The notes under the pieces were generated by a model, which was given only the letters and a program-made list of their open reading frames with translations, did not search any database and was not told the origin of the DNA. Shown in pieces: positions 1 to 55,566 of a stretch of DNA of 64,000 bases (position 1 is its first letter; the number at the start of each line of letters is the position of its first letter). Made by a program: the position numbers and the translations under genes. Origin of the DNA: Candidatus Magasanikbacteria bacterium CG1_02_32_51 (lineage in GTDB: Bacteria > Patescibacteriota > Patescibacteriia > Magasanikbacterales > UBA922); contig MNVC01000019.1 in assembly GCA_001871435.1 (NCBI GenBank), positions 218-64,217 on the forward strand, read 5' to 3'.

Positions 1-63
1 ATTAATTCTTAACACTGTTGCGTTAGAAGTTGGGGACTACCTTATATATTATTTTTCAATTTT

Positions 64-177
64 AATGAACTACCTCGCAGCATCGTGCCCAAGGCTGATC
101 AGTCCTCTGGCTGAAGCTGACGAGGTATTAAACCTTGTCCGCCTTGCCGTGCACGCCTTGGGCTGTGGGCGGATTAA
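64..177. repeat. GC-rich structured repeat element, copy A (in the + sense upstream of ligT-like gene); 114 bp, inverted relative to copy B at 7580-7693
   Basis: Read directly. gaactacctcgcagcatcgtgcccaaggctgatcagtcctctggctgaagctgacgaggtattaaaccttgtccgccttgccgtgcacgccttgggctgtgggcggattaa is the reverse complement of 7580-7693 with 2-3 mismatches. About 60% GC in a 28% GC background. Internal helices are cctcgcagc/gctgacgagg, gcccaagg/ccttgggc and tccgcc/ggcgga. Confidence 0.85.
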
Positions 178-203
178 ACTTTGTATCTGTGTAATAAACT
201 TTT

Positions 204-767
204 ATGAAACAACGTATATTTATAGCTTTTAGAATAAAAAATGAAGAAATAATAGAAGAATTAAAAGAAATACAAACAAAATTGAAGAATCTAAACAAAA
301 AGGCTCATATCATTTGGACAAAATCAAAAGCTTTTCATATTACTTTGGAATTTTTAGGTGAGATAAATGAAGTACAATTGTCCAAAGTAAAAGAGATTGT
401 CTTGATTATTGCCAACAAATATCATGATTTTAAATTTTGGTTAAATAATTTGAGTGGATTTCCAAGTCAAACTCAGTCCAAAATAATTACCATGCATGTA
501 GAAGGGGAGAAAAGACTGGCTACTTCTCTACAAGAGGATTTAGTATTTGCTCTCAAAGAAAGTGGTTTGATAAAAGAGATCCAGCCATGGATAGCACATA
601 TTACTTTGGGACGAAATAGTGGAGAACACCAAATGCTTGGTTATGATACTATAAGTTTTGAAAAAAAAGTTTTTGAAATTAAAACAATTGAAATTATTAG
701 AAGTGATTCAAAATTTGGTGGGTCTAAGTATAGTATTTTAGAAAGTTATGACTTAAATGGTAAATAA
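204..767 (+). CDS. 2H phosphoesterase family protein (RNA 2',3'-cyclic phosphodiesterase ThpR/LigT-like)
   Basis: Two H-x-T-x motifs (HITLEFLG and HITLGR) at the spacing typical of the 2H/LigT family; 187 aa. Confidence 0.65.
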   Translation: MKQRIFIAFRIKNEEIIEELKEIQTKLKNLNKKAHIIWTKSKAFHITLEFLGEINEVQLSKVKEIVLIIANKYHDFKFWLNNLSGFPSQTQSKIITMHVEGEKRLATSLQEDLVFALKESGLIKEIQPWIAHITLGRNSGEHQMLGYDTISFEKKVFEIKTIEIIRSDSKFGGSKYSILESYDLNGK

Positions 768-1536: not shown

Positions 1537-1543
1537 TAAAAAT

Positions 1544-2305: not shown

Positions 2306-2309
2306 TTTT

Positions 2310-3767: not shown

Positions 3768-3793
3768 AACTTTTTTGAAAAACATGCTATAAT
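3765..3793 (+). promoter_or_regulatory. extended -10 promoter (TGcTATAAT) only 9 nt before the ATG of the M23 peptidase gene; possible leaderless or near-leaderless mRNA
   Basis: TG at 3785-3786, TATAAT at 3788-3793, ATG at 3803. Confidence 0.35.
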
Positions 3794-3802
3794 AGTTTTA
3801 CT

Positions 3803-5062
3803 ATGAAAAAGCGTGTTTTTTTATTTATTTTCATTTTAATAACGGTTTCTTTGACTAACCCTTTTTTTGTTTTTACAACCACTGATACAGAACTGGCTAG
3901 TAACAAAAATGAAATAGACGATTTGAATAATCAAATAGCCCAAAAGAAAAACAAAATAGCCGAATTGGAAAAAACTATTGCTGATTATAAAGCTAAAATA
4001 GAAACAACTAGATTGGAATCGAAATCTTTATCAAATCAACTTTCTATTTTGGATAACTATATTATACAGGTTGATTTGGATATTCAGGCTACACAAGAAA
4101 AAATAGATGCTACAGGTTTAGAAATTAAAGGATTGGATTTATCTATAGCAGACAAAGAAACTACAATTGCTAAACAACAAAGATTATTATCAGGTCTTAT
4201 CAGGACTATTTATTATGAAAATAATAAAAAATATATTGAGGTAATGGCTGCTTATGCTAATTTTTCTGATTTTTATAATCGTGTTCATTATGTTCAAAGT
4301 TTAGAAGAAAATCTTGGTAAGAGTGCCAAAACTATCAGAATAGCTAAAGAAGAATTACAAACCAAAAAACAACAAAGGGAAGAACAACAGACAAGTTATC
4401 AAAATTTGAAAGTTACACTAGATAATAAGAAAAAAGATTTACAAGAACAAATCAAATTTAAAGAAGATCTTTTGTTACAAACTAAGTCTTCTGAGTCTAA
4501 ATACAATACTTTAGTACAGAATTTAAGAAATCAATATAGTCAAATCGAAAATGAAATTACTAGTTTTGAAAGTCAAGTAAGAAAGAAACTAGAAGAACAG
4601 AACAAAATTACTGAAGGTGGTAATCCACAACAAAATGGTCTCTTACCATTGTCTTGGCCGACTCAAAGTCGTTATATTACTGCTTATTTTCATGATGAAA
4701 ATTATCCATATAGAAATATCTTTGAGCATCCTGCTATTGATATTAGAGCTGCTCATGGAACCGCTATACGAGCTACGGCTTCTGGTTATATTGCTCGTGC
4801 TAGAATTTGTACTACTGCTAGTTGTTATGCTTATGTGATGATTATTCATTCTGATGGATTTTCTACTGTATATGGACATTTGAGTAATATTGTGGTGTCT
4901 GCTGATCAATTTGTAACCCGTGGAGATATAATTGGTTATTCTGGAGCCACACCAGGCACTGTTGGTGCTGGTCCATTTACTACAGGGCCTCATTTGCATT
5001 TTGAAGTTCGTAAAGATGGTATTCCTGTAAATGCATTAAACTATTTAGAAAAAGATTATTAA
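3803..5062 (+). CDS. secreted coiled-coil M23 family metallopeptidase (EnvC/NlpD-like)
   Basis: N-terminal signal/TM, a long coiled-coil region, and a C-terminal M23 domain (HxxxD-like region and HLHFEV). Confidence 0.75.
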   Translation: MKKRVFLFIFILITVSLTNPFFVFTTTDTELASNKNEIDDLNNQIAQKKNKIAELEKTIADYKAKIETTRLESKSLSNQLSILDNYIIQVDLDIQATQEKIDATGLEIKGLDLSIADKETTIAKQQRLLSGLIRTIYYENNKKYIEVMAAYANFSDFYNRVHYVQSLEENLGKSAKTIRIAKEELQTKKQQREEQQTSYQNLKVTLDNKKKDLQEQIKFKEDLLLQTKSSESKYNTLVQNLRNQYSQIENEITSFESQVRKKLEEQNKITEGGNPQQNGLLPLSWPTQSRYITAYFHDENYPYRNIFEHPAIDIRAAHGTAIRATASGYIARARICTTASCYAYVMIIHSDGFSTVYGHLSNIVVSADQFVTRGDIIGYSGATPGTVGAGPFTTGPHLHFEVRKDGIPVNALNYLEKDY

Positions 5063-5065
5063 TCT

Positions 5066-5623
5066 ATGAAATTTGATAAAAATAATTTGTTTTTTAGTGA
5101 TAATATTATTTTTTTTGATACAGAATTTACTAATATTGATAGTGAAATTGGTGAAATAATGTCTATTGGTCTTGTCAAACCAAATGGTGAAGAATTATAT
5201 CTAGAATTAGTTTATGATAATAAAACTGTTCATCCTTGGGTTACAGAAAATGTAATCCCTTTTTTGTTAGGTAACAAAATCAGTAAAGAAAAAGCTATAA
5301 AAAAAATTTGGGATTTCATTGGTAGGGGAGAAGATAAGCCTTTTCTTATGGCTTATGTCAATCAATTTGATAGTATTTATTGGTATAGACTTTTTGCTGA
5401 TCCAAAAGATCATCCAGTATTTTGGATACCAATTGATTTTGCTTCTATTTTGTTTGCTTTTGGTTTCAATCCAGAGATAATGAGGGTAGGGGACTTCTTT
5501 GATTGGTTAGATATAGATTTGCAAAAATATAAAAAACACAATGCTTTGGAAGATGCTAAAATGTTAAAAGAAGTTTATGATAAATTTAAAGAAAAAGTAT
5601 TAGTGTCGCACAATGTAGAGTAG
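5066..5623 (+). CDS. DEDDh-family 3'-5' exonuclease (oligoribonuclease/RNase T-like)
   Basis: Exo I FFDTEFT, Exo II AYVNQFD, Exo III HNALEDAKML (H-x4-D). Confidence 0.6.
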   Translation: MKFDKNNLFFSDNIIFFDTEFTNIDSEIGEIMSIGLVKPNGEELYLELVYDNKTVHPWVTENVIPFLLGNKISKEKAIKKIWDFIGRGEDKPFLMAYVNQFDSIYWYRLFADPKDHPVFWIPIDFASILFAFGFNPEIMRVGDFFDWLDIDLQKYKKHNALEDAKMLKEVYDKFKEKVLVSHNVE

Positions 5624-5643
5624 TATTTTTACCAAATTGAAAA

Positions 5644-5680
5644 AAAGAGTAAATATCTTTTCAATATTTACTCTTTTTAA
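5644..5680 (+). terminator. intrinsic terminator after the exonuclease gene
   Basis: Perfect inverted repeat aagagtaaatat / atatttactctt with an 8-nt loop, followed by a T run. Confidence 0.55.
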
Positions 5681-5693
5681 ATTAACATTTATA

Positions 5694-5770
5694 ATTTAGG
5701 AATTTAGAAATTTTCAATTTTAATTTGTCCGCCTAGGGTGGAAACAATTTTCAATTTAAAAATTTCAAAA
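5694..5770. repeat. degenerate member of the modular repeat family (AT-rich leader ttaggaatttagaaattttcaattttaat plus GC piece gtccgcctagggtggaaac)
   Basis: Shares ttaggaatttagRaatttt with 55483-55505 and ttttcaattttaat with 48-63; gtccgcc also occurs inside the 114-bp element. Confidence 0.5.
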
Positions 5771-6438
5771 TTAATTTAAATTCATAAAAATACTTACCAA
5801 TTGTTGATGTCAAAAGTGGGTATAGAACAAAGTAGGATACTCACTGCGAAAAGTTGTAGAAAAAGTCGATACTCTATACCTTTAGTTTTGAACCCACTTT
5901 TTGTGGTGTCGCAAAATATAGAGAATAGTGGCTAAACCTAGCCAAAAAGTAGGTAAGTGAAGTGGGTGTTACCTAAGCTATAAATAACCATTAAAGCTAG
6001 CTAAGATTATTATAAATAATTAGAACAATTATATATTAATATTTTTTTGAACAATTTATTAGTGGGTATATACTGTATTGTAAAAAGAATAAAGTGATGT
6101 AAATTAGATACTGAAACTAATCTTCATTTTAGTCAGAATAAGCCTTAGTGTCGCATAAGATACATTGTGCGACATTGTATCAAATAAGGTTTTTGATACT
6201 CTTTTCTATTACTCCCCTATTTTTTTCTTTTATTTTTATAAAAAAATAAACATCCAAAAAATGTTTATTTAAAAAAACAATAAATAAAAAAGTAGCAATG
6301 GTGGTTAGACAGAATTTGACGTTTAGGTTTTTTAATCCTGTCTAAACACCTCGGCGTCCCCCCCCTCTTTTGAAGGATCAAACGTACCATTCATTATCTA
6401 TTTAACTACTTTAAAAAGATCATGCCAATTATGTGTGG

Positions 6439-7485
6439 CTATTTCCAATATATTCTATCTGGGTATCTCAAATCTATGTAATTCAAAAAAATATTATTAT
6501 CTATTTTTTCTTTATATAAAGAGTTTAATTTATTTATTTGGGCAGTCACTTCCCTATCAAAACGTGTCTTGATATAAAATCCTTTGTAAGTTTTTATTGT
6601 TAGATCTTGTTTGTTATCTTCAAAGATAAAATATTTTAAAGGAATTTTTTCATTATTATCAAGTTGTTTGAACCAATTTATTAATATAATTACTTCTGCT
6701 TTATCCAAAACATTCTCATTTATATTTACCTCTTGTATATTATTTTTATCATAAATAATGGGATAATTGCCTAAATCTTTTTTTATAGTAGCAATATCTG
6801 GTTCATGCAATTTACCTACTACAATTGTGGTAGTAATACTTTCTCCAGTAATAGTGGTTGTAACTACTTTTTGAGTAATATCTTTCCACTCATAATCACT
6901 TATCTTTCGCATTATTTCTACTATCTTTCCATCTAGATCTACATAGCTATATTCTAAACCATTGTCATAGATAATAGTAGAAATTTTTTCTTGAATAATT
7001 ATAGACAATTTGTTGGGAAAACTTTTTTTGACAATAATTTTTTCAATTGGGTATCTTTCTTTTAAGACGTCTTTTATTTCATTTACATTGGAAAAAACAT
7101 AACTATTTTCTCTTATTAAACCTAATTTTTTATAATTGAGAATACCATTTATTGTTTCCAATAAATCTATTTTTTTTATTCTTTGTAATCCTTCTATTTG
7201 TATATCATTTATATTAAAGAAAGGATGAAAAACAAAGACTGAAAAAATAGTTAGAATGCTTATAATTATAATAAAAAGATTTAAATATATTAGTTTTTTA
7301 CTAGCCTTTTCATGAATAAAAGGGTTCTCTATTTCTCTACCTTGCCAAGCAAAATCGCGTCTAGTTTTTTTGGAGTTAAAAAAATAATTAAAAATTTTTT
7401 TTGTACTTTTTACTTTATTATTGAACTTTCTTTGTAATTTGTGATGGTTTATTATTTTTTTGATTGGCACAGGCTTTTTACACAA
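6439..7485 (-). CDS. ftsQ: cell division protein FtsQ/DivIB-like (POTRA domain); non-ATG (TTG) start as called
   Basis: Basic cytoplasmic N-terminus, a single TM, then a POTRA-like INDIQIEGLQRIKKIDLLETIN segment. There is no Met in the first 100 aa, so an alternative start codon is likely. Confidence 0.5.
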   Translation of the reverse strand: MCKKPVPIKKIINHHKLQRKFNNKVKSTKKIFNYFFNSKKTRRDFAWQGREIENPFIHEKASKKLIYLNLFIIIISILTIFSVFVFHPFFNINDIQIEGLQRIKKIDLLETINGILNYKKLGLIRENSYVFSNVNEIKDVLKERYPIEKIIVKKSFPNKLSIIIQEKISTIIYDNGLEYSYVDLDGKIVEIMRKISDYEWKDITQKVVTTTITGESITTTIVVGKLHEPDIATIKKDLGNYPIIYDKNNIQEVNINENVLDKAEVIILINWFKQLDNNEKIPLKYFIFEDNKQDLTIKTYKGFYIKTRFDREVTAQINKLNSLYKEKIDNNIFLNYIDLRYPDRIYWK

Positions 7486-7494
7486 TCCTGAAGC

Positions 7495-7530
7495 CGGCGA
7501 AGCACGGCGTAGGATCTTTCTTAAAGTATA
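7495..7530 (-). promoter_or_regulatory. start-codon-abutting GC hairpin motif (member 1 of 5), upstream of ftsQ
   Basis: In mRNA sense: gaucc-uacgccgugcuucgccggcuuc-aggau, immediately 5' of the start. Near-identical to 14703-14738. Confidence 0.5.
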
Positions 7531-7579
7531 TTTTTTAGTAAATTTTTGCTATGTTATAAATAATTATTTTGTTTGGCAG

Positions 7580-7693
7580 ATTAATCCGCCCACAGCCCAA
7601 GGCGTGCACGGCAAGGCGGACAAGGTTTAATTCCTCGTCAGCTTCAGCCAGAGGACTGATCAGCCTTGGGCACGATGCTGCTAGGTAGTTCAT
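7580..7693. repeat. GC-rich structured repeat element, copy B (inverted; in the sense orientation of, and upstream of, ftsQ)
   Basis: Reverse complement of 64-177 at about 98% identity. Confidence 0.85.
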
Positions 7694-7786
7694 TTATAAA
7701 TGTTTTTAAGCAGGAAACCTGTCTGCCGACAGGCAAGGATCCCTCATTCAATTTCTTCGTACCTCAGAAATTTCTTTCAGGATAAA

Positions 7787-8814: not shown

Positions 8815-9807
8815 TTATTCTTTAGTACTGTGACCAACTATGGTCCTTTTTCTTAATTTTTGAATTAGCAAAAATATTTTATATTTGAAAGGATTCAAGA
8901 TTATTTCCAAGGGTTTTGGATAACATTCCAATTTGCCATTAAATCCTGCTTTGAACTTGGCTACACCGTCTAGAGGGTGAGATTTTTTCCAAGAATAATT
9001 ATGATGGGAATTTGTATCATTACTTCCCTTCTCTGCTGGTGGAGCCATACCCCAAAAGTCATAAACTTTACAGTCTAACTTTTTGGCTAATTTTATAATT
9101 TCAAATTGATTTAGATAAGGTCCCATGAGATTACGCTGGCTATTGGAAGATGCTCCAAACAAATAATACATAGTTTCATTGTATTTGAACACAATAGCTG
9201 AAGATAAGACATCATCTTCAAAGTAAGTAGTTAACTGATAAACACTATCTAATTTTAATAATTTTTCTATATAATTTTTATCATGACTTTTGATACTGTT
9301 TCTTTCTGTAGTCATTTCATTCAATTTCCAATATTTATTTATATCTTTTTCAATTTTACAAACAACACCCTTTTTTATGGCTAAGTTTATGTTGTATCTA
9401 GTTTTGGAATGCATCTCAGCCAAAATTTCATCTTCAGTTTTTTTTAGATCCAAAAGCCATGTGCATTCTGGTTGTCTATTTTTTACTTCTTTATACATAA
9501 AATATTTTGGCATTGTATAATTCAATCTTTCTACACGCCAAAATACAAAATTATTTATTTTCAAAAATTTACTTATTTCATCTAATAATTCTTCAGAAAA
9601 AGAAACTCTAGGAATATAAATAAATTTAAACCCTAAAATATTAGAGGTTATTACACCTTGAAATTGATTTTTTACATTATCTTTAGAAATAAATTCATAC
9701 CTTATTAATTTTCTTCCTGTATCTTTCAAAAATTCACCATATTCCCACGATTGCAAAAATTCTTCTTTAGTAGTCCATTCTTCTTTTTTAAAAACTTCTT
9801 TTATCAT
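8815..9807 (-). CDS. FemAB family peptidoglycan bridge aminoacyltransferase, paralog 1
   Basis: KFKAGFNGKL motif; similar length and organisation to the downstream paralog. Confidence 0.6.
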   Translation of the reverse strand: MIKEVFKKEEWTTKEEFLQSWEYGEFLKDTGRKLIRYEFISKDNVKNQFQGVITSNILGFKFIYIPRVSFSEELLDEISKFLKINNFVFWRVERLNYTMPKYFMYKEVKNRQPECTWLLDLKKTEDEILAEMHSKTRYNINLAIKKGVVCKIEKDINKYWKLNEMTTERNSIKSHDKNYIEKLLKLDSVYQLTTYFEDDVLSSAIVFKYNETMYYLFGASSNSQRNLMGPYLNQFEIIKLAKKLDCKVYDFWGMAPPAEKGSNDTNSHHNYSWKKSHPLDGVAKFKAGFNGKLECYPKPLEIILNPFKYKIFLLIQKLRKRTIVGHSTKE

Positions 9808-11039
9808 AAATTAACATTTATTAGTTCTGCTATTTTTTTAGCTTGGTTATAAGTAATATTTTTATTTGTTGGCAAATTTACAGTCAGTTTGGCTAATTTT
9901 TCAGCATTTGGACAACTACCATTTATATAACCTGTTTTTGACATATTTATATCCTTGTCTTTTGGTGCAATTACCGAATCATACCAGTTGCCCAAAATGA
10001 TTTTATGTTTTTTGGCCATTTTTATTAGTTCTTCTGGATTTTCAACTAAAATGGTATAGCGTAAAAAAATGTTGTCATCCGATACTGATGGTTTTTGCAT
10101 TTTATTACTATCCAAAAGTTTATCATAAATATGAGCAATCTCTTGACGGTGTTTATTCATTTCGTCCAATTTGTCGAGTTGGTTCAGCAAAATTTTGGCC
10201 AAAGAGTTGGGATATTTGGCTGGATAAAATTTTAGTTTGACACAAGATTTCTCTTTTTTGTATATTATTTTACTTGTTAAACCTATTTTTTGGGCAATAG
10301 CTAAGAAAATTTTACCAAGTACGATATCATACATCATTTTTCCAATATAAAAAACTGGGAAATTAAACAGATTTTGGAGAGTTGTCCTAATGGTTGATAA
10401 AGCTAATTTTTTGTTTAGCAATAATATTTTTTCAGCCAATTTCTCATTGTTAGTAATCAGTGCCCCACCACGAGAAGAAGAGATTATTTTGTCACTGCCA
10501 AAACTAAACATTCCTATATCTCCAAAAGTACCTGTTAATTTATCATTATATTTTGTTCCCAAAGAATGGGCACAATCTTCTATGACTATCAGATTATTTT
10601 CTTTAGCAATTTGCAGTAATTTGTTCAGATTTGCTGCTTTGCCAAAAGTATGTTGGATAATTAAGATTTTTGATTTTGTTGTGATTTTCTTTTTTAAATC
10701 TTCAACTTCCATATTGAAATTGTCATCCACATCTACATAAATTGGTTTTCCTCCTGCCCAATTTATTGCATTACTGACTACTAGACAAGTATAGGCTTGG
10801 ACTAAGACTTCGTCTTCACTTTTTATACCAACAGCTTCTATAGCTTTTTGCAAAGCAGTACGTCCACTATCAAAAGTAATAACAAATTTTGCATTAAAAT
10901 AATTTTGTAACCAGCTTTCTACTTCTAGAATATTTTTACCTTTTCGCAAATAAGGCCACTTCCAAGGTAAAAATAAAAAAGATAAGGAAGTCAAGGCATC
11001 TTTTTTATAAATATTAGGATGAAAACCAGTAAAAATCAT
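9804..11039 (-). CDS. DegT/DnrJ/EryC1/StrS family PLP-dependent aminotransferase
   Basis: FSFGSDKIISSSRGGAL matches the family's lysine-containing FSFHxxK motif. Confidence 0.7.
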   Translation of the reverse strand: MIFTGFHPNIYKKDALTSLSFLFLPWKWPYLRKGKNILEVESWLQNYFNAKFVITFDSGRTALQKAIEAVGIKSEDEVLVQAYTCLVVSNAINWAGGKPIYVDVDDNFNMEVEDLKKKITTKSKILIIQHTFGKAANLNKLLQIAKENNLIVIEDCAHSLGTKYNDKLTGTFGDIGMFSFGSDKIISSSRGGALITNNEKLAEKILLLNKKLALSTIRTTLQNLFNFPVFYIGKMMYDIVLGKIFLAIAQKIGLTSKIIYKKEKSCVKLKFYPAKYPNSLAKILLNQLDKLDEMNKHRQEIAHIYDKLLDSNKMQKPSVSDDNIFLRYTILVENPEELIKMAKKHKIILGNWYDSVIAPKDKDINMSKTGYINGSCPNAEKLAKLTVNLPTNKNITYNQAKKIAELINVNL

Positions 11040-11042
11040 AAA

Positions 11043-12635
11043 TTATTTTTTTAATTCGTATCTTATTATTTCTGGTATTCTATTTTCCAATAATATAACC
11101 GATTTTGTTTTTTTGTGTTCTTTTAGATAAGTTAACAATTCCAAACTATTTGTTTTGATCATTACTTTTGTCTGATATTTAGTACCTGCACCCTTTTTCA
11201 AAGGTTCTACAAAATCTGGGGTTATAATCACTAATTCATCAGCCATAAAGGCAATCTCTCCACCAATTTGTTCGTGAATTTCATTACTAAGTTCTCCAAG
11301 TTCAATAATTCCTCTAGTTATTACAATTTTTTGATATTCATGTGAATAATTAGCCAACATATTTATAGCAACTCTAAATCCATCAGGGTTAGAATTATAA
11401 GTATCGTCTATTATGATAGACTTACCATAATTATAGATTTGTAAAGCATGCTTTGGATTTTCTACTTTTTTGACAGCTTCTCTTATTTCTTCTAAAGAGA
11501 ATCCTAAATAATTAGCTACCAAAAGAGACGGCGCTAGATTCAAAATATTGTATTCACCAAAAAGTTTTGTTTGCAATTCTATATGAATTTCTTCACCGTT
11601 TAAATTTTTTTTGAATTTAAATAAAATACCTTCTTTATTACTTTCTATGCCTTCAATTAAACAAGTTGGATTGAATTCTTCTTCAAAACCAAAAGTCATA
11701 GTTTTAGCTTTTATTTCATTCAGGAATTCTCGACAATATTTATTATCAGAATTAGTTATAGCTAGACCATTTTTTGGTAAGTATTTTAATAATTCATATT
11801 TGGCTTTTTGGATATTTTCTATTGAACCAAAGAGACTCAAATGTTGTGGACTAATTGCTGTTAGAATACCTATTTTAGGATTTACAATATTACAATGTTC
11901 AAGTAAATCTCCCACTCTATAAGCTCCCATTTCTACCACAAAAAAATCAATATCTTTGAAATTAGTTTGTAAAATAAATTTACTAATACCAAAATCAGTA
12001 TTAACATTTTTTGGAGTTTTGACAACTTTAAATTTGTAAGAGAGCAAATCTGTTAGTATTTCTTTGGTGCTAGTCTTACCATAACTCCCTGTTATGCCGA
12101 TAACAGTTAAATTTATGTATTTAGCTAATTTTTTCTTTGCTAATTTAGCAGTATAATTTTTTATAAATTGTGTAATAACATTGAAAAAATTGATTATAAT
12201 AGTAATTAAAATAAATCTTAAGAAACTAAAAACAACTACAGTCCTAGGATCTTGAGTTTTTAAGAAAAAAATAGATTCTACAAAAATTACTACAAATAAA
12301 ATTAAAATAATTTTTAAGCTAAAGACGGGTCTTTTGATTGGTTTTTTCAAAATAATTTTCAGAATTAAGTAAACAAAATCCAATATAAAAATTAATAAAA
12401 TTACCCATTTTAATACTGCTAATTTTTGATCCCAAAAAAAGATTACCAAAATAAGAGGTATTTTGTATAAAAAATCATAACGAAAGAGTATTCTCTTTCC
12501 TTCTGTGGTATGTAACAAATCTAGAAATCTATCCCAACGGTATTCCTTGAGTTGCCAAAAATAAGCAAATTGAAGATATTCATTGCTCATACTAACAAAC
12601 CAGAAGAAAACTATTGCAAAGTCTATAATTTGCAT
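11043..12635 (-). CDS. murF: UDP-MurNAc-tripeptide D-Ala-D-Ala ligase MurF with an N-terminal polytopic membrane extension of about 170 aa
   Basis: GITGSYGKTSTKE P-loop and the MurF signature IIDDTYNSNPDGF (DDSYNANP). The first 170 aa or so are hydrophobic TM helices, which is unusual for MurF. Confidence 0.7.
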   Translation of the reverse strand: MQIIDFAIVFFWFVSMSNEYLQFAYFWQLKEYRWDRFLDLLHTTEGKRILFRYDFLYKIPLILVIFFWDQKLAVLKWVILLIFILDFVYLILKIILKKPIKRPVFSLKIILILFVVIFVESIFFLKTQDPRTVVVFSFLRFILITIIINFFNVITQFIKNYTAKLAKKKLAKYINLTVIGITGSYGKTSTKEILTDLLSYKFKVVKTPKNVNTDFGISKFILQTNFKDIDFFVVEMGAYRVGDLLEHCNIVNPKIGILTAISPQHLSLFGSIENIQKAKYELLKYLPKNGLAITNSDNKYCREFLNEIKAKTMTFGFEEEFNPTCLIEGIESNKEGILFKFKKNLNGEEIHIELQTKLFGEYNILNLAPSLLVANYLGFSLEEIREAVKKVENPKHALQIYNYGKSIIIDDTYNSNPDGFRVAINMLANYSHEYQKIVITRGIIELGELSNEIHEQIGGEIAFMADELVIITPDFVEPLKKGAGTKYQTKVMIKTNSLELLTYLKEHKKTKSVILLENRIPEIIRYELKK

Positions 12636-14691: not shown

Positions 14692-14702
14692 ATAGGTTTT
14701 AT

Positions 14703-14738
14703 CATCCTGAGCCGGCGAAGCACGGCGTAGGATCTTTC
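14703..14738 (-). promoter_or_regulatory. start-codon-abutting GC hairpin motif (member 2), upstream of serS
   Basis: In mRNA sense: gauccu-acgccgugcuucgccggcuc-aggaug, 12 nt before the ATG. The 10-mer tcatcctgag recurs inverted at 14846-14855, overlapping the stop codon of the next gene. Confidence 0.5.
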
Positions 14739-16394: not shown

Positions 16395-17900
16395 TTATTT
16401 TTTCTTTTCTTTCTTATTTTTTATCTCTTCCACAACCAAAGGTTTCATCAATGGAAAAGCTGTCACTTCACGTAAAGTATGTGAACCTGTAATCAAAGCT
16501 ACAAATCTGTCTATGCCAATACCTGTACCAGTTGCTGGGGGCATACCATACTCCAAAGCCTCAACAAAATCCCAATCATTGGCCATAGCTTCATCATCAC
16601 CGCTTGCTTTGTTCTTGGTTTGATCTTCAAATCTTTTTATTTGGTCAAGAGGATCATTTAATTCAGTATAAGAATTACTCAATTCAAAGCCATTGACAAT
16701 AAGTTGAAACATTTCGGTATAGCGGGGGTCAACTGATTTTTTGGCTAAAGGTTTTAGTTCAATTGGATAATTTAAGACAAAAGTTGGCTGAATAATTTTT
16801 GGACGAGCTGATTGTTTATATAAATTGTCTAATAATTTTCCTCTCTCAGTTAAATTTTCATGGTCATAACTTTTTTCCTTCATAATCATTTTTAACTCTT
16901 CAATATCTGTATATTTGTTAATATCTATACCTGAGTATTTTAATACCGCTTCATGAAAAGTTATTCTAGGATATGGAGTTTCAAAATTTATTTTTTGTCC
17001 ATCAATTTCTACTTCTAATTTACCAATGGATTTTTCAATCACAAAAGGAATCATTTTTTCATGAAGTTTCATATTATCTTCGTAATCTGCAAAAGCCCAA
17101 TAGTATTCAAGCATCGTAAATTCTGGATTATGTTGATGATCAACACCTTCATTTCTAAAAGCCCTACCAATTTCAAATGTTTTTTCAAAACCTCCAACCA
17201 ATAATCTTTTTTGCCATAATTCACCAATGCAAATACGCAAATGTACGTCCAAATCATAAGCGTTTAAATGTGTATCAAAAGTCTTGGCCATTGCTCCAGA
17301 AGCAATAGTTTCTAAAACTGGAGTTTCTACTTCAATAAAATTTTCTGATTGTAAAAATTCACGAAGATAACGCAAAATTTTTCCTCTAACAATAATTTTT
17401 TCTTTTTCTTCTGGATTAACCAAAAAATCAAGATATCTTTTACGATAACGCATTTCTTCATCATTCAAACCATGAAATTTGTCAGGTAAAGGTAAAAGTG
17501 CTTTTGATAATATTGTCCATTTACTTACTAAAATAGAAGGTTCGCCTTTATGAGTAATAAATTTTTTACCTTCTATTTCTATGATATCCCCAGAATCTAT
17601 TTTTTTGATAAAAAGTTTATAATTTTCAATTCCTAAATCATCTTGTTTGAAAGCAATCTGCATACGTCCAGATTCATCTTGCAAATGACAAAATGTTAGT
17701 TTACCCATTTCACGTTTGGTCATAATGCGTCCAGCAACGCTAAGAAAAGTTTCTACTTCAGAATCTAAAGCTTGTTTAATAGTTTGTTTACGATTATTTT
17801 TTGCTGGAAAAGGATCAATTTCTATTTCCTCTAGTTCTTTCAATTTTTTGAGACGAATTTTGCGTTCGTCATTGATATTAAATTCAGTAGTTTGAAACAT
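16395..17900 (-). CDS. lysS: lysyl-tRNA synthetase (class II)
   Basis: N-terminal OB anticodon-binding domain; class II motifs including FRNEG and GxGIDR. Confidence 0.9.
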   Translation of the reverse strand: MFQTTEFNINDERKIRLKKLKELEEIEIDPFPAKNNRKQTIKQALDSEVETFLSVAGRIMTKREMGKLTFCHLQDESGRMQIAFKQDDLGIENYKLFIKKIDSGDIIEIEGKKFITHKGEPSILVSKWTILSKALLPLPDKFHGLNDEEMRYRKRYLDFLVNPEEKEKIIVRGKILRYLREFLQSENFIEVETPVLETIASGAMAKTFDTHLNAYDLDVHLRICIGELWQKRLLVGGFEKTFEIGRAFRNEGVDHQHNPEFTMLEYYWAFADYEDNMKLHEKMIPFVIEKSIGKLEVEIDGQKINFETPYPRITFHEAVLKYSGIDINKYTDIEELKMIMKEKSYDHENLTERGKLLDNLYKQSARPKIIQPTFVLNYPIELKPLAKKSVDPRYTEMFQLIVNGFELSNSYTELNDPLDQIKRFEDQTKNKASGDDEAMANDWDFVEALEYGMPPATGTGIGIDRFVALITGSHTLREVTAFPLMKPLVVEEIKNKKEKKK

Positions 17901-17963
17901 AGCGTTTTTACTTAAAAAGTTGCTAAATTATTGTTTAATTGTAACAGATTGTTGTTAAAATTA

Positions 17964-17988
17964 CAAATACTCCTAGAAAAGGAGTATT
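17964..17988. terminator. perfect 10-bp-stem hairpin between greA and lysS (aaatactcct-agaa-aggagtattt)
   Basis: Palindrome read directly; the flanking U/A tracts are weak. Confidence 0.35.
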
Positions 17989-18054
17989 TATGCTTAAATT
18001 AGCTTTTTTAAAATAAAATATCTTATTACTTTATAAACTTTTAACTTTTTTTAT

Positions 18055-18516
18055 CTATTTAATATCAATTATCTTATAAATCTGTATTCCTGCTGGCAAA
18101 GTAGCCTGTACTTCGTCATTTTTATTTCTACCCAAAAATGCTGAACCAAGTGGTGATTCATTAGAAATTTTTCCAGACAAAGGATCTGCCTCTTGTGCTC
18201 CAACAATAGTGTATTCTTTTTCTTTTCCATTTACTTTTACTTTGACAGTAGAGCCAATTTGGACTTTGTTACCTTTTTCTTCAGAAATAATTTCGGCATT
18301 ATTTATTAGATTATCAAGTTCTAATACTCTACTTTTGGTCCAAGACATTTCATCGCGAGCAGCATGATATTCTGCATTTTCTGACAAATCACCCATTTGT
18401 TTGGCTTCATCAATTCTTTTGGCGATTGCTATTATTTTTATTTCTTTTAATTCCTTCAATTCTTGTTTTAGAGTATTTAACTTTGATTGACTCATATATT
18501 GGATATCATCTGTCAT
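18055..18516 (-). CDS. greA: transcription elongation factor GreA
   Basis: N-terminal coiled coil and C-terminal FKBP-like domain (SNESPLGSAFLGRNKNDEV). Confidence 0.85.
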   Translation of the reverse strand: MTDDIQYMSQSKLNTLKQELKELKEIKIIAIAKRIDEAKQMGDLSENAEYHAARDEMSWTKSRVLELDNLINNAEIISEEKGNKVQIGSTVKVKVNGKEKEYTIVGAQEADPLSGKISNESPLGSAFLGRNKNDEVQATLPAGIQIYKIIDIK

Positions 18517-18549
18517 ATATTTTTATTTTTAATGATTAAAACTTTAGTG

Positions 18550-18576
18550 AAAAAAATAGAACCGCAATATGCGGAT
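18550..18576 (-). terminator. intrinsic terminator downstream of mrdA (ccgcauauugcgg followed by a U7 run in minus sense)
   Basis: Hairpin 18563-18575 followed on the minus strand by the A7 (U7) run at 18551-18557. Confidence 0.5.
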
Positions 18577-18644
18577 TTAGGTATTTATATAGTATAACAG
18601 TTTTTGTTTTAAGGTCAAGTTTTAGTCTAAAAAAATTCAAAGAA

Positions 18645-20681
18645 TTATTTTTTGTATAATGCCCACCAACGATAAAAGGCATCAGCTATTGGTTCAGCAT
18701 TTATTCCGCCTTCTCCGCCTTCTTCTATTAAAATTGTTACTACAATCTCAGGATTTTCAAAAGGAGCAAAAGAAGTAAACCAAGCATGAGTATCTTTTGT
18801 TTTACTCCATTGTGCTGTACCTGTTTTACCAGCTGATGTAAAAGGTAGTGTAGATAATCTATGACAAGAACCATAAGATACACAATCCTTCATACCAAGA
18901 CGAACAGTATTTATGTTTGCTGGATCAATAAAATTTTGATTCAACACTTCAGATTTTATGTCTGTAACTCTCCCAGTTTCTAAATTAACAATTTGCTTTA
19001 ATGTATGTGGTACATACAATGTTCCACCATTGGCAATAGTGGCTGTCATAGATGCAATTTGTAAAGGCGTTGTCAAAAAATCACCTTGGCCAATAGAATA
19101 GTTATATGTATCCCCAATATACCAAGGTTCTTTTTTGACGCGTTGCTTCCATTGTGGTGTTGGTAAAAAGCCACTTGATTCAGCTGGCAAATCAATACCT
19201 AACATTTTACCAAAGCCAAAATATTTTAGATATTCATTTATTTTATCAACTCCCAAACCAACAAAATTTCCATAGCCACCACCAATATAATAGTAAAAAG
19301 TATTTACAGACAAAGCTAAAGATTTTTGTACATTAGTCATACCATGTCCACCAACTTGCCAATCAGGAAAAAACCACTCTGCAACTCGCAATCCACCAGT
19401 ACTCAAAAAACTAGTGTTAGGATTGATTATTTTTTCTTGTAAAGCAGCTAAAGCCATAACAGGTTTTATAACTGAACCTGATGGAAAATTACCACTAATA
19501 GCTCTATTGAATAAAGGTTCGTCTGAATCATTTAAATATTTGTTATAATTATCTTTAGTTATTCCACCAGAAAAATCATTATTATCAAATCCAGGATAGC
19601 TAACTAAAGCCAAAATTTCGCCACTGCGTGGATCTAAAACTATAGCAGAAGCTCGATCTTTATTTATTTCTTGTAATTTTTGATTAACTAATTCTTCTAA
19701 TTTATTTTGTATATTTGCATCTATTGTCAAAATTAAATTGGATCCAGCAATAGGTTCCTTTTCTGCTAAGTTTTGTTGTTCTTTACCTTGAGCATTTACT
19801 TCTATTTTTTTCTCTCCATAGGTACCACGCAAATAAATTTCATAATTTTTTTCTATTCCAGTTTTCCCAATAGAATCTGAAGGAAAATATCCTTTTTTAT
19901 AATAAGTATCCAATTCTTGAGGTGACAATTTTCCTACATAACCTAAAATATGTGATAAACTATTATTGATATATTTTTGATTATCTTCAGGGTGTAAAAA
20001 ATCAGCGTTGTTAGAGGTATCATTAGTGCTAGTAGTATTTATACCTTTTTCTGTAGGATCTAAAATATACAATCTTTTACTACCAAGCTGAATACTAATA
20101 CCTGGCAAATCTGTATTAGCTATTTGTGTTTTTAAAGCTGATTCATAAGGAATATCTTCAGTAATAATAATTGAATCTTGTTGATAATCTTTATATTTTT
20201 CTATTATATCACTTATTTCTTTTTTATCTTGATCAGTAATACTTATCAATTTTTCTATAATTTTATTCAAATCTTCTTGATTTTTTGGTAAATTTTTTGG
20301 AATTACAGACAAAGAAAAATTTGGTACATTTTGAGTAAGTTGGACATTGTTTCTATCAAAGATAAAACCTCTTTCAGATGGTACTGGAATAATTTTTTGT
20401 CTATTATTCTCGGCTCGTACACGATAATTATCTCCTAATAAAATTTGTAAAAAAAATCCTCTTCCTAAAATAATAGAAAAACAAAAAACTACAAAAAGCA
20501 AAAATAAAAAAGTCTTTTTACTACCAGAAAAACTTGATCCCAAATAAGAACTGCCTGAATTATTGACTTCATTTTCAGAATTTTTTTCAGTAAATAAATT
20601 ATCTTCTGTCCAAGACAATTTGTATTTACCCTTTAGATTAATTTTTTGTTTTGGATTTATAAGATATGGATCAATTTCCAT
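18645..20681 (-). CDS. mrdA: penicillin-binding protein 2 (transpeptidase)
   Basis: SxxK (SVIKP) and KTGTA motifs; N-terminal TM; placed after mreBCD. Confidence 0.85.
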   Translation of the reverse strand: MEIDPYLINPKQKINLKGKYKLSWTEDNLFTEKNSENEVNNSGSSYLGSSFSGSKKTFLFLLFVVFCFSIILGRGFFLQILLGDNYRVRAENNRQKIIPVPSERGFIFDRNNVQLTQNVPNFSLSVIPKNLPKNQEDLNKIIEKLISITDQDKKEISDIIEKYKDYQQDSIIITEDIPYESALKTQIANTDLPGISIQLGSKRLYILDPTEKGINTTSTNDTSNNADFLHPEDNQKYINNSLSHILGYVGKLSPQELDTYYKKGYFPSDSIGKTGIEKNYEIYLRGTYGEKKIEVNAQGKEQQNLAEKEPIAGSNLILTIDANIQNKLEELVNQKLQEINKDRASAIVLDPRSGEILALVSYPGFDNNDFSGGITKDNYNKYLNDSDEPLFNRAISGNFPSGSVIKPVMALAALQEKIINPNTSFLSTGGLRVAEWFFPDWQVGGHGMTNVQKSLALSVNTFYYYIGGGYGNFVGLGVDKINEYLKYFGFGKMLGIDLPAESSGFLPTPQWKQRVKKEPWYIGDTYNYSIGQGDFLTTPLQIASMTATIANGGTLYVPHTLKQIVNLETGRVTDIKSEVLNQNFIDPANINTVRLGMKDCVSYGSCHRLSTLPFTSAGKTGTAQWSKTKDTHAWFTSFAPFENPEIVVTILIEEGGEGGINAEPIADAFYRWWALYKK

Positions 20682-24446: not shown

Positions 24447-24597
24447 TATTGATTACATTATCAATGTTTCAAACTCGCTTCTATTAAATAATAATTTAAA
24501 TTAATTTCTAGCTACTAACAATATTGTGTGAGTTAATATTTTTTAAAGAATTTTATCTTAAGAAAGATTCCTCACTGTACTTCGTCGGTTCAGAATA

Positions 24598-39598: not shown

Positions 39599-41026
<1,428 letters not shown>

Positions 41027-42022: not shown

Positions 42023-42054
42023 AATATTATTTTACAAAAAAGTTAAATTAGTAT

Positions 42055-42132
42055 GGATACGAAATACGAAAGGTACAAAATTACGAAAGTATTCCGCAAT
42101 TCGTATGTTCGTAAATTTCGTATTTCGTATCC
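42055..42132. repeat. nested palindromic array of a 7-mer (atacgaa / ttcgtat) in the atpA-atpG spacer
   Basis: ggatacgaaatacgaaa ... tttcgtatttcgtatcc form a perfect 17-bp inverted repeat, with inner ttacgaa / ttcgtat copies. Confidence 0.6.
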
Positions 42133-42142
42133 CTTGTATCAT

Positions 42143-48088: not shown

Positions 48089-48142
48089 ACAAAAGCAATA
48101 ATATAATAATTATATTTTACTATAAAAATAGTAAAAAGTAAA

Positions 48143-48336: not shown

Positions 48337-48433
48337 TAGAGTATTGCACTTTTTCAAGCCTTTGTCAAGTATCTAAACAAATAAAATTACCCTTAGTTAA
48401 GGCAATTTTATTTATTAATTTAAAAAAAATATC

Positions 48434-49963: not shown

Positions 49964-49981
49964 AATATTTAATTAAATGCT

Positions 49982-50659: not shown

Positions 50660-50786
50660 AAACTTACAAATAGTGGCTTTATTATAACAAAAAGGGCTAA
50701 AAAAGCAACAATCACAAAAAATAGAAGATTTTTTCTGTTTTTTATGATATAATTTAAAAACTTAAACAAGACTAACTATTTTCTTT

Positions 50787-52193: not shown

Positions 52194-52202
52194 TTTAATT
52201 AT

Positions 52203-52994: not shown

Positions 52995-54879
52995 TGTGAT
53001 TTTAAAAATAATACCTCTTACTAGACTACCTAGAGCTTTTTCTACTTTTGATTATCAAATAAACGAAGAATTGAAAACTTCAGTAGAAATTGGTCAATTG
53101 GTAAAAATTTCTTTCCGCAATAAAGAAATCTTTGGGGTTATTTTTGATATTGAAAAAAATTCAGAAAATGAAAAACTAAAATGTCTTATAGAAATAGTAA
53201 ATGAAATACCAATACTAAACAAAAAACAATTACATCTTTATATACAGCTAGCTGAAATATATTTAGTCTCTCCTTCAACTTTTTTGAAGATGGCTTTGTG
53301 CCCTTTACAAAAAAGAAAATTAAAAAAAATGATATTAAAAAAAGAAAAACCAAATATCAAAAAAGAAAAACCAAACCAAGAATACTATCTTTATAATTCA
53401 GAACACGAGCATAAAAAATTATACAAAAATCTAAAAAAAACAACTTTAATTATTGTACCAGAAATCTGGAAAATAGAAGAAATAAAAAAATATTTACCAC
53501 AAAAATTACAAACAAAAGTTGTCACTTGGTATGCCGAATTGAGTAATAAAGAAAAATTTGAAAATTGGTTACAAATAAAAAAAGAAGAAGAAACTATTGT
53601 TATAGGCACTAGAAATGCTCTTTTTTTACCCTTCAACAATTTGGACAAAGTGATTATAGATTATGAACATGATGAAAATCTAAAAAGCTGGGACAGTAGC
53701 CCAAAATTTCAAAGCAAAGATATTGCAAAATTTTTACAAAAATTATATTCTTGTGATTTAATATTTAGTAGTTTTTCTCCTAGTTTTGAAAAATATTATG
53801 AGATAAGTAAGGGAACAATTAAAATAAATAAAAAAATGACAAAAGACAGATTGCTTTTTAAAAGAAAAAAAATAAATGAAAAAAACTTACCAATTATTAT
53901 AAATTTCACAAATAAAGATTTTTTTAAAAACAAAAATATCTTTTCTTTAGAATTAGAAGATAAGATAAAAAACTCAAAAGAAGATGTTTTTATATACCTA
54001 AATAGAAAAGGTTATGCTACTAGTGTTACTTGTATGAATTGCAACTTTGTAGAGTCTGACCCCCTTACAGGGTTGCCATTAATTTACAAAAAAGAACAAA
54101 ACATACTCTATTCACCTTATAACAATTTTATCAAACCATTATCTGCTACTTGTCCAAAATGCAATAGTGAATTAACTAAAATGTATGGCTATGGTACAGA
54201 GTTGGTAGAATCTGAACTTAAAAAATTACTAAATACAAACACTAATCACAATATTATTAACATTGACAAAAATACTGACTTATCAAAGTTTTCTGAAGAT
54301 AAACAAAATATTATAATTGGAACAATCGCCGCTTTCAAATCTATAAATTGGATGAAAACTGAACTTATTGTTTTCTTAGATATAGACCGACAACTAGCTA
54401 TACCAGAATATTTATCAACAGAAAACATTTGGCACAACATACAAGAAGTAGAATATTATAGAAGAACAGATAGTAAATTCTATATTCAATCCAACAAAGC
54501 TGAACATACTATTTTCAAATCTCTAGGTGAAAAAGATAGGATATATAGGACAGACCTGAACAATAGACAGAAACTTGGTTTATTTCCTTACAAATATATA
54601 GTAAAATACTACTATGGTGGTGACAACGAAGGACAAAGCAAATTCCAAATAGAACAGACTATCAAGAATCTAAATTTAGCATTGACAAAAATCTCAAATA
54701 ATGTTACTATTCTTGGTCCTTATGAGATGCAACCAAAATATTTTAGAAGAAAATATTGGTACAGTTTTGCCATTAAAATTGCTGAAAAAAATCCCTTTCT
54801 AGTTATAAGACAAATAAATCAATTTATACCAGGTAACCATAAAATAGATCCTAACCCAATTAGTTTGCTTTCACCTTAA
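52978..54879 (+). CDS. priA: PriA (primosomal protein N') homolog with degenerate helicase ATPase motifs (Walker A absent; DEEH reads DYEH)
   Basis: N-terminal 3'-binding domain IPLTRLPRAFSTFDY (E. coli PLPRTFDY); LIIVPEIWKIEE; TIVIGTRNALFLPFNNLDKVIIDYEHDENLKSW (E. coli [32 protein letters not shown]); zinc-binding CMNCN...CPKCN. The position where GSGKT is expected reads YNSEHEHKK. Followed by def and fmt, as in the conserved priA-def-fmt order. Confidence 0.6.
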   Translation: MNLYFDVILKIIPLTRLPRAFSTFDYQINEELKTSVEIGQLVKISFRNKEIFGVIFDIEKNSENEKLKCLIEIVNEIPILNKKQLHLYIQLAEIYLVSPSTFLKMALCPLQKRKLKKMILKKEKPNIKKEKPNQEYYLYNSEHEHKKLYKNLKKTTLIIVPEIWKIEEIKKYLPQKLQTKVVTWYAELSNKEKFENWLQIKKEEETIVIGTRNALFLPFNNLDKVIIDYEHDENLKSWDSSPKFQSKDIAKFLQKLYSCDLIFSSFSPSFEKYYEISKGTIKINKKMTKDRLLFKRKKINEKNLPIIINFTNKDFFKNKNIFSLELEDKIKNSKEDVFIYLNRKGYATSVTCMNCNFVESDPLTGLPLIYKKEQNILYSPYNNFIKPLSATCPKCNSELTKMYGYGTELVESELKKLLNTNTNHNIINIDKNTDLSKFSEDKQNIIIGTIAAFKSINWMKTELIVFLDIDRQLAIPEYLSTENIWHNIQEVEYYRRTDSKFYIQSNKAEHTIFKSLGEKDRIYRTDLNNRQKLGLFPYKYIVKYYYGGDNEGQSKFQIEQTIKNLNLALTKISNNVTILGPYEMQPKYFRRKYWYSFAIKIAEKNPFLVIRQINQFIPGNHKIDPNPISLLSP

Positions 54880-54985
54880 AATAAAATAACAAAAAAAACG
54901 GGATGACAAAATGAGCGAAGGCGAATTTTGTTACTACGTTGTAACAAATTTCACTTCGTTCAATTTGTCAATCCAAAATAATAAT

Positions 54986-55483
54986 ATGTTAGAAGTAATA
55001 ACAATTCCCAATGAAAATCTAAGAAAAAAATCTATAGAAGTAGACCTTAATTTTGTTCGCTCTAGTGAAGCCCAAAAACTTTTTGATGATATGATAATTA
55101 CCATGTACAAAGATGATGGTATAGGTTTGGCTGCTCCTCAAGTTAGCAAAAATATTCGTGTTTGTATTATTGGTAAAGAAGCACTAAAACAAGATAAATA
55201 TAATACTTTGGACAATAACCAAGATTTGGTTTTGATAAATCCAAACTGGCAAAAAATAAATAAAAAAACTTATACAGATTTGGAAGGTTGTCTGTCAGTA
55301 CCAAAAACTTATGGAAAAGTAAAACGCTACAGACAAATAAATGTAGAAGCTTTGAACAGAAACGGCGAAAAAATAAAATTTGAAGCCAACAATTTTTTTG
55401 CTCGAGTTATTCAACATGAAGTTGATCATCTTGATGGAATTTTATTTATTGACAAAGCGACGGGGGTCTATGAAATTGAATAA
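54986..55483 (+). CDS. def: peptide deformylase
   Basis: GIGLAAPQV, EGCLS and QHEVDHLDG motifs. Start placed at the internal Met (MLEVITIPN); the longer ORF from 54911 is probably a 5' over-extension. Confidence 0.85.
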   Translation: MLEVITIPNENLRKKSIEVDLNFVRSSEAQKLFDDMIITMYKDDGIGLAAPQVSKNIRVCIIGKEALKQDKYNTLDNNQDLVLINPNWQKINKKTYTDLEGCLSVPKTYGKVKRYRQINVEALNRNGEKIKFEANNFFARVIQHEVDHLDGILFIDKATGVYEIE

Positions 55484-55566
55484 AAAATTAGGAATTTAGG
55501 AATTTTAAAAAGCTATCTTTAAATACTTTAAAAATGAACTACCTCGCAGCAAGCTGACGAGGTATC
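55483..55566. repeat. AT-rich leader repeat plus the 30-nt mini version of the 114-bp element (gaactacctcgcagca|agctgacgaggtat) in the def-fmt spacer
   Basis: ttaggaatttaggaatttt matches 5694-5712. The mini element equals positions 1-16 plus about 48-63 of the 114-bp element, forming the hairpin uaccucg/cgaggua. Confidence 0.7.

Follow-up and report, generated by a model that had tools for sequence, protein, structure and literature searches.

The 64,000-nt stretch of Candidatus Magasanikbacteria bacterium CG1_02_32_51 analysed here (contig MNVC01000019.1, positions 218 to 64,217; hereafter the window, meaning the whole stretch, with a GC content of about 30%) carries a set of short GC-rich hairpins in its intergenic spacers. 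We conclude that these hairpins are very probably gene-less derivatives of a compact insertion sequence (IS) of the IS200 group, within the IS200/IS605 family, whose transposase TnpA is a Y1 enzyme of the HUH type. The argument draws on homology to transposase-bearing elements, on the boundaries of the elements, on their polymorphism at insertion sites and on covariation within their hairpins. A first-pass annotation of the window had grouped the hairpin pieces as related modules of one repeat system, which was borne out, and had denied them a transposase-end function, which was not: the hairpins correspond to the subterminal palindromes of IS200-group IS, intact copies of which hold a 148-aa Y1 transposase between the two. 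Throughout, L-numbers denote comparison loci and P-numbers comparison proteins; L001 is the contig near-identical to the window, from GCA_002322575.1.

One copy in the window is complete, and is composed as follows.

55533-55665, plus strand: complete gene-less two-hairpin element of IS200 type, resembling palindrome-associated transposable elements (PATEs), recognised by covariance models, alignment and fold.
55540-55564, plus strand: right-end hairpin (the 'mini'), preceded by the right-end tip AATGAACTA.
64-nt spacer of the element: contains an unrelated hairpin at 55588-55610.
55630-55649: left-end hairpin CCTCGAGGC-AA-GCCTCTAGG, with compensatory changes, followed by GGAATACAAT.
55658-55665: left-end tip GATTAAAT.

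Read on the plus strand, the element is antisense to where tnpA would lie. The mini, at 55536-55565, is exactly as it had first been described; the left-end hairpin and tip at 55630-55665, which make it part of a complete 133-nt element, had been overlooked. The mini is 100% identical to the cross-phylum right-end consensus, and a covariance model of the right end (R2), built from other genomes only and holding no window sequence, matched 55533-55566 with 62.3 bits (E 2.4e-12). The corresponding left-end model (R1) matched 55631-55657, a sequence that is itself among the 23 used to build it. The element aligned over its full length with elements of Magasanikiibacteriota, Planctomycetota, KSB1 and Desulfobacterota, and folded as single-stranded DNA it gave -21.4 kcal/mol (z -4.2).

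Members of the family (family A) were sought by scanning one genome per species for GAACTACCTNGCAGCA, a 16-mer in which 15 bases are specified. Of the 119 stretches returned, about half were chance matches in coding sequence, such as a conserved gene encoding ...WNYLAAW..., and were filtered by hairpin context; the scan yielded about 45 elements of the same type in more than 30 genomes and about ten phyla, with hosts that include KSB1, Bacteroidota, Planctomycetota, Desulfobacterota, Omnitrophota, Patescibacteria and one archaeon-labelled metagenome-assembled genome (MAG). Their common layout begins with aatGAACTA, a hairpin of 9-11 bp (CCTCGCAGC-AA-GCTGCGAGG), TATC and a variable spacer, and continues with a second hairpin CGNNGC-AA-GCNNCG, then GGGGAATTAAACC, a short variable stretch and GATTAAA. 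A hammerhead ribozyme, prompted by the box CUGACGAG, was considered and rejected, as most members have GCTGCGAGG without the A.

At several of these loci the 3' end of an antisense open reading frame (ORF; ...YVKxQGxEKEY..LF*) follows the first hairpin. In L074 both hairpins bracket a frameshifted ORF whose reconstruction matched Pfam Y1_Tnp (E 3.4e-33), and homologues of this protein are 148-aa IS200/IS605 transposases. Intact genes for 148-aa TnpA proteins (P0042, P0014 and P0104) are flanked by ends of the family, and on the contigs examined tnpA always lies between ...CTAATCTCTCTGGGGTTAGTTCCCCGAAGCTCTGCTTCG at the left end and TACCTCGTCAGCTCTGCTGCGAGGTAGTTCATT at the right end. The same TnpA was found on 10 contigs, with different flanks in at least five of the six places shown, and one identical IS sits at five or more different sites, where the flanks diverge exactly at CTAATCTC... 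and ...GGTAGTTCATT. The complete IS measures 540 bp, and copies with the same hairpins and tips were seen in L122-L129 and L074. In the intact IS, 9 nt separate the right-end hairpin from the tip on its 3' side and about 25 nt separate the left-end hairpin from the tip on its 5' side, distances that match those of IS608; the window element has 9 nt at the right and 16 nt at the left. The intact Y1-bearing element was found in Bacteroidota, Cyanobacteria and Piscirickettsia, and IS of this type on plasmids of Kovacikia (Cyanobacteria) and Piscirickettsia show covarying stems and conserved tips. A search of a phage collection returned no match to the 540-bp IS, and a full-text literature search with the hairpin sequence returned irrelevant primer matches only.

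Covariation was assessed on 23 left-end hairpins from many phyla, the sequence of which was unconstrained by the search pattern. Pairing was retained in 94.9% of cells with 17 double (compensatory) changes, and none of 500 shuffles reached either value, while slid controls were 24-51% paired. Since pairing exceeds that of the shuffles, the hairpin structure is under selection, as the first-pass annotation had proposed, and the reader of the selected hairpin is most simply TnpA acting on single-stranded DNA.

The two 'full' copies of the first-pass annotation are confirmed as 117-nt repeats at 64-180 (plus strand) and 7578-7694 (minus strand), complementary at 97%. The hairpin pieces also occur far above chance: the 16-mer GAACTACCTCGCAGCA is found three times with at most one mismatch (at 67, at 7676 on the minus strand and at 55536) against 0.13 expected. 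With the boundaries of the family applied, these copies resolve as follows.

64-178, plus strand: full copy 1, a fused single-hairpin derivative of 115 nt.
64-81: right-end tip and 5' arm of copy 1.
83-114: nested 32-nt double mini-hairpin in the loop of copy 1.
116-134: 3' arm and left-end flank GAGGTATTAAACC of copy 1.
137-174: left-end tip hairpin GTCCGCC...GGCGGAT of copy 1, with a 21-nt nested insert.
172-178: left-end tip GATTAAA of copy 1.
7580-7694, minus strand: full copy 2, nested as copy 1, with 3 substitutions and with flanks that differ on both sides.

In this fused form the 5' arm of the right end pairs with a 3' arm of left-end type (GAGGAATTAAACC), and both tips flank a single hairpin. 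Short fused forms without nested inserts are present in other phyla (L009, L045, L083 and L084), the left-tip hairpin occurs both plain and expanded in another Magasanikiibacteriota MAG (L041), and in a Patescibacteria MAG (L078) a different palindrome occupies the same first-hairpin loop. The mini had been taken for a deletion product of the full element. Given that the mini is the canonical form in about ten phyla, it is the full copies that carry loop insertions, and the mini is no deletion derivative; the short form is the canonical state, and nested insertion gave rise to the long form. The nested inserts are common to both full copies and their flanks are not, so the nested form itself was copied. 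The right boundary of copy 1 is backed by comparison with L134 and L137 upstream of ligT. On its other side the window (1-41) and L001 (4625-4665), otherwise identical contigs, part 22 nt upstream of the element, and window positions 34-42 read GGACTACCT, a partial echo of the element's GAACTACCT. This divergence points either to a break in the assembly at the element or to a strain-level rearrangement.

Single hairpins with a conserved tail, such as the fused copies, resemble repetitive extragenic palindromic (REP) sequences, and an alternative of low probability is that the window holds REP/REPIN-type repeats served by a domesticated single-copy REP-associated tyrosine transposase (RAYT) rather than derivatives of a true IS. 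No transposase lies nearby, as this would have it, and several TnpA homologues were automatically named 'REP element-mobilizing transposase RayT' by JGI. However, the associated transposase, the class of which was determined on elements of other genomes and not of the window genome, passed the NCBIfam model transpos_IS200 with 134 bits (cut-off 55) and failed the RAYT model REP_Tyr_transpos (25.5 and 22.4 bits, cut-off 80). It is also multi-copy, with contigs breaking within it, and the two ends of its element are asymmetric and IS-like. The window contains three copies only in 64 kb and no inverted doublets, and GTAG stands 3' of the stem on the tnpA-sense strand, whereas the REP criterion places it 5' of the stem.

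The IS200 derivation is further supported by the state of the insertion sites in syntenic relatives, in which glutamyl-tRNA synthetase (GluRS) is 82-38% identical; the GluRS of the window itself is identical to OIO19533.1 of CG1_02_32_51. The femAB-ftsQ, def-fmt and atpG-atpD spacers all show presence/absence polymorphism at orthologous sites, with relatives that lack the elements. The def-fmt spacer, which houses the complete element, is 232 nt long in the window against 5-13 nt in L173 and L176, and the femAB-ftsQ spacer, which houses copy 2, is 300 nt long against 6-44 nt in L130, L133, L136 and L137; the only insert in the L130 femAB-ftsQ spacer is a hairpin of the separate family B described below. 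Matches to the right-end model R2 were absent from 661 kb of syntenic Magasanikbacteria DNA. Such a patchy distribution is as expected of a mobile invader. No direct repeat is common to the flanks of the three window copies, the elements have no terminal inverted repeats and asymmetric tips, and, at 133 nt and 115 nt, they are without coding capacity and consist of ends only. An ATCCT direct repeat around the insert at 7.5 kb was considered as a target duplication and is better read as two B-type hairpins. In L175, a 79%-identical relative, the def-fmt spacer is filled by a 148-aa ORF that is repeated at 10621-11067 (minus strand) and 19626-20072 (plus strand), and the same was seen in L174. 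This antisense ORF was examined as a candidate TnpA and rejected: neither Pfam nor tblastn gave a match, so it represents another repeated gene. The def-fmt spacer thus holds an ORF in L175 and a gene-less element in the window, and is a recurrent insertion hot spot.

Close relatives lack the elements in their orthologous spacers, as is typical of mobile DNA and not of a conserved cis-regulatory RNA, and the suggestion that the hairpins are structured cis-regulatory or processed RNAs, with selection acting on RNA hairpins as binding sites for a protein or RNase, is very improbable. In its favour, the three family-A copies are all co-oriented with the downstream gene, the folds are more stable than those of shuffles (z about -2.8 to -4.2) and the stems are maintained through compensatory change; covariation is, however, equally expected for a DNA hairpin recognised by TnpA. 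Rfam 15 gave no family-A match, the only hit at gathering score being a tRNA-Lys, and no credible match was obtained between 5600 and 7800 at E<=10, nor at seven loci of the canonical element at E<=1. The same sequences form the ends of transposase-bearing IS in other phyla, where they stand beside unrelated genes. Least probable, and barely worth entertaining, is that these are ordinary intrinsic terminators or mRNA-stabilising hairpins, alike since only GC-rich stems are stable at 30% GC: the hairpins are intergenic, some lie between co-directional genes and the palindrome at 40995 was called terminator-like on the plus strand, but that call falls on the non-transcribed strand, the terminator scan called no family-A hairpin, none of which has a T-tract, full copy 1 stands between divergent genes in L001 (a near-identical strain in which the upstream flank is known), and the 34-nt identity with elements of other phyla makes convergence impossible. 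A co-opted RNA or terminator role may exist but is not needed to account for the data.

As derivatives of an IS200-type element, the window copies would move by the mechanism established for that family, in which TnpA dimers bind both hairpins on single-stranded DNA and cut at the tips. A single-stranded circle would then be excised and pasted beside a short target motif with no target duplication, and the gene-less copies would depend on TnpA supplied in trans. 'Full' and 'mini' differ through the insertion of other small palindromes into the hairpin loops, presumably while these were single-stranded; the same 15-16-nt module recurs, doubled or solo, in the 40995 palindrome and the 5724 piece, and the centre of an unrelated AT-rich palindrome received the GC-rich units. 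A number of observations weigh against this derivation. The window and about 0.77 Mb of loci from the candidate phyla radiation (CPR), mostly of Magasanikbacteria relatives, contained no Y1 transposase gene by tblastn, so the window copies may be fossils rather than still active. Next to the left end, where a specific tetra- or pentanucleotide would be expected as the target, the flanks of multi-copy elements (L124-L129, and L051-L112 of Pirellulales) show a T-rich preference only, with a boundary ambiguous by 1-5 nt, too little to define a target motif. The fused copies have one hairpin against two in the canonical mechanism, the 32-nt loop insert might block TnpA binding, and IS200-type transposition offers no obvious explanation for solo mini-hairpins of 19-30 nt without either tip. 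Finally, a terminus near 6 kb, as would follow from the features described below, would put the tnpA-sense strand of two of the three copies, a sample of three only, on the leading-strand template. The strand bias of IS200/IS605 elements runs opposite to these two copies.

A further recurring unit is a mini-hairpin module of 15-16 nt, TCNGCC-N3-GGCNGA, which is found solo, doubled, nested and, within genes of relatives, in frame. Besides the full-copy loop insert and the left-tip hairpin, its variants include two further features of the window.

5724-5742, plus strand: solo mini-hairpin TTTGTCCGCCTAGGGTGGA, a homologue of the element's left-end tip hairpin.
40995-41024, no strand assigned: perfect 30-bp palindrome in the atpG-atpD spacer, a relative of the nested insert of the full copies.

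Both had been noted in the first-pass annotation, the former as a gtccgcc-containing piece at 5727-5745, and both are present. The palindrome had been likened to the interior of the full copies, and its 3' two-thirds do match (21/22, with one indel); taken whole, the interior is a diverged copy of the palindrome. The palindrome (fold z -7.8) consists of two head-to-head mini-hairpins, TCAGCC-AGA-GGCTGA then TCAGCC-TCT-GGCTGA, and is missing from the atpG-atpD spacers of L179, L180, L181 and L182, in which other inserts stand. L131 and L132 also have the 19-nt solo hairpin at 5724-5742, and L133 lacks precisely this hairpin, without any duplication of the target; the hairpin matches the left-end hairpin CTTGTCCGCCTTGGGCGGA of L041. 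Analogous doublets lie in L134 (10499), L146 (17448) and L138 (1335), and in L180 the module is nested inside another hairpin. A looser form of the pattern has five matches in the window against 0.005 expected from composition-preserving shuffles, three of the five falling on the palindrome (both halves) and on the copy-1 loop insert (one half); it missed the left-tip hairpins and the solo piece at 5724.

Two insertions into coding sequence were seen in relatives. In L138 a perfect 30-nt double mini-hairpin palindrome, TCCGCCCAAGGCGGATCCGCCTTGGGCGGA (1335-1364), lies inside a SpoU-type methyltransferase gene (834-1628) and adds SAQGGSALGG to the protein in frame, an insert of 10 aa by comparison with window ORF 1544-2305. 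In L143 a GC-rich element resembling family A (17700-17800) lies within a DegT-type aminotransferase ORF (17398-18771, minus strand), in frame and adding about 37 aa relative to window ORF 9804-11039.

A tentative reading, which we hold to be possible and the less likely outcome, is that the mini-hairpin is itself the insertional unit, spreading in Magasanikbacteria and other groundwater phyla with a preference for single-stranded hairpin loops. Such loops would be offered by IS200-type ends, AT-rich palindromes and other mini-hairpins, and the unit would double to give perfect 30-bp palindromes, while essential genes would tolerate it in frame. Its spread could be driven by a Y1 transposase in trans or by template-switching repair. 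If this were true, the module and the fused elements would document the passage from an IS200 transposon to REP-like and Rickettsia palindromic element (RPE)-like repeats in ultra-small CPR genomes.

The GC-rich units are accompanied by AT-rich palindromes and by hairpins of other families.

55486-55510, plus strand: left arm of an AT-rich palindromic repeat (AATTAGGAATTTAGGAATTTTAAAA) that encloses the 55533-55665 element.
55679-55703, minus strand: right arm of this repeat, a 25-nt inverted repeat with 55486-55510 (88%).
5693-5772, plus strand: second copy of the AT-rich palindromic repeat, with arms at 5701-5723 and 5750-5772, enclosing the solo mini-hairpin.
7483-7518, minus strand: hairpin of family B (GATCCTACGCCGTGCTTCGCCGGCTTCAGGAT), a different family, in the copy-2 spacer; also at 14701-14736 and 24558-24596.
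7718-7786, plus strand: hairpin C (CCTGTCTGCCGACAGG; family C, CCTGYCTGCCGRCAGG) with an adjacent degenerate B-like hairpin (GGATCCCTC...TTTCAGGAT).

Shared AT-rich flanks had been described as a leader common to all sites. The motifs exist, at positions a few bases from those first given: TTAGGAATTTAGRAATTTT at 5696-5714 and 55488-55506, with an inverted copy at 55683-55701, and TTTTCAATTTTAAT at 53-66 and 5711-5724. Each is common to two sites only, and full copy 2 and the palindrome have neither. The AT-rich motif AATTTAGGAATTTT occurs four times against 0.58 expected and forms inverted repeats of 23-25 nt at 55.5 kb and 5.7 kb. A copy of the same AT-rich palindrome without a GC-rich core is found in L001 (437-572); it is thus a separate repeat into the centre of which GC-rich units were inserted, and not a leader. 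The count of six or more sites holds only if the distinct families B (7483, 14701 and 24558) and C (7718) are included, the family as listed occupying five.

The composite of C and B hairpins recurs in L131, L132 and L136, and in an Omnitrophota MAG (L083) it stands beside a family-A element, with an identical CCTGCCTGCCGGCAGGCAGG. This suggests a wider cross-phylum pool of hairpin modules such as B and C. The atpA-atpG spacer of the window (42023-42142) contains a long hairpin with imperfect pairing, composed of TACGAAAT repeats (GGATACGAAATACGAAA...TTTCGTATTTCGTATCC), which is present in L180 with a nested mini-hairpin TCCGCCTTTGGCGGA and missing in L179, and a related TACGAAT hairpin fills the atpG-atpD spacer in L179 to L181.

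At 6148-6175 there is a dif (Xer)-like site, GTGTCGCATAA-GATACA-TTGTGCGACAT, of 11-6-11 organisation with inverted arms, located where gene orientation converges (plus up to 5623, minus from 6439) and cumulative GC skew peaks. By its sequence it is a probable dif site, and the convergence of genes and skew makes this region probably the replication terminus. The site is the core of the spacer, and its conservation stays at 90-100% even in relatives with a GluRS identity of only about 62-66%. Two more dif-like sequences, half sites or pseudo sites, lie at 5603-5625 (AGTGTCGCACAATGTAGAG), overlapping the 3' end of ORF 5066-5623, and at 5905-5930 (GGTGTCGCAAAATATAGAG), and may have been left behind by elements that integrated through Xer. 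ORF 5066-5623 and ftsQ are separated by 815 nt without genes, most of which (5760-6410) retains 75-82% nucleotide identity in the syntenic relatives L130, L134, L136 and others; this stretch gave no Rfam hit and no convincing ORF, and could represent an unannotated RNA or other features of the terminus region. Upstream of a clpB-like gene in L001 stands a CIRCE-like inverted repeat (4530-4570), TTAGCACTC-N9-GAGTG-A-GTGATAA, and the orthologous leader in relatives has a conserved TCCGCCCAAGGCGGA hairpin.

With the IS200 derivation, the tempting reading as a new structured RNA gives way to a testable explanation in terms of mobile DNA. A single lineage of very small IS200 elements, its end hairpins almost invariant, has spread over about ten phyla, among them the CPR bacteria, whose genomes are commonly portrayed as poor in mobile elements. 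The intermediate stages seen, namely two-hairpin, fused, nested or solo and, in relatives, in-frame, bear on the origin of REP-like and RPE-like repeats, and in practice, in CPR metagenome bins, the elements serve as markers of insertion hot spots and of assembly breakpoints.

Among known systems, the yeast mitochondrial GC clusters are likewise short GC-rich palindromes in AT-rich spacers, polymorphic between strains and sometimes nested or genic. They belong, however, to another domain of life and differ in sequence, and they are not known to be linked to a Y1 transposase. RPEs, of 100-150 bp, lie in frame within protein genes of a reduced AT-rich genome, and share with the present family the placement of palindromic repeats in frame inside genes, as in the DegT (about 37 aa) and SpoU (10 aa) insertions; in contrast, the inserts here measure 30-100 nt and are related to IS200 ends, whereas RPEs are not known to have a transposase relative. 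The REP sequences and bacterial interspersed mosaic elements (BIMEs) of proteobacteria are short GC-rich extragenic hairpins tied, through RAYT, to a Y1 HUH enzyme, and IS1397 and ISKpn1 insert into REP loops. Mosaic clusters of hairpin types in one spacer, as at 7483-7786, are common to both systems, but the enzyme of the window family is of IS200 class, its copy number is low and its ends are conserved across phyla, whereas REPs are species-specific.

Elements of the IS200/IS605 family have subterminal end hairpins, at the base of which a guide sequence lies, lack terminal inverted repeats and do not duplicate their target (PMC7290912, PMC10055086), and PATEs are gene-less derivatives of this family, known from Haloquadratum, Halanaerobium and Geobacillus (PMC3119063, PMC7290912, PMC10055086). 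As in PATEs, the window family keeps only the two subterminal hairpin ends, which match a TnpA-bearing IS, has neither terminal inverted repeats nor target duplication, and would presumably be mobilised in trans. It differs in deriving from a 540-bp tnpA-only IS200 rather than an IS605 that carries tnpB or omegaRNA, in its fused one-hairpin form and loop-nested palindromes, and in that no cognate TnpA was seen in the lineage. Thus, while gene-less IS200/IS605 derivatives are known as such, the conservation of ends across phyla, the fusion to one hairpin, the nested palindromes and the in-frame inserts are less ordinary, and the varied occurrence of the mini-hairpin module is the least expected part.

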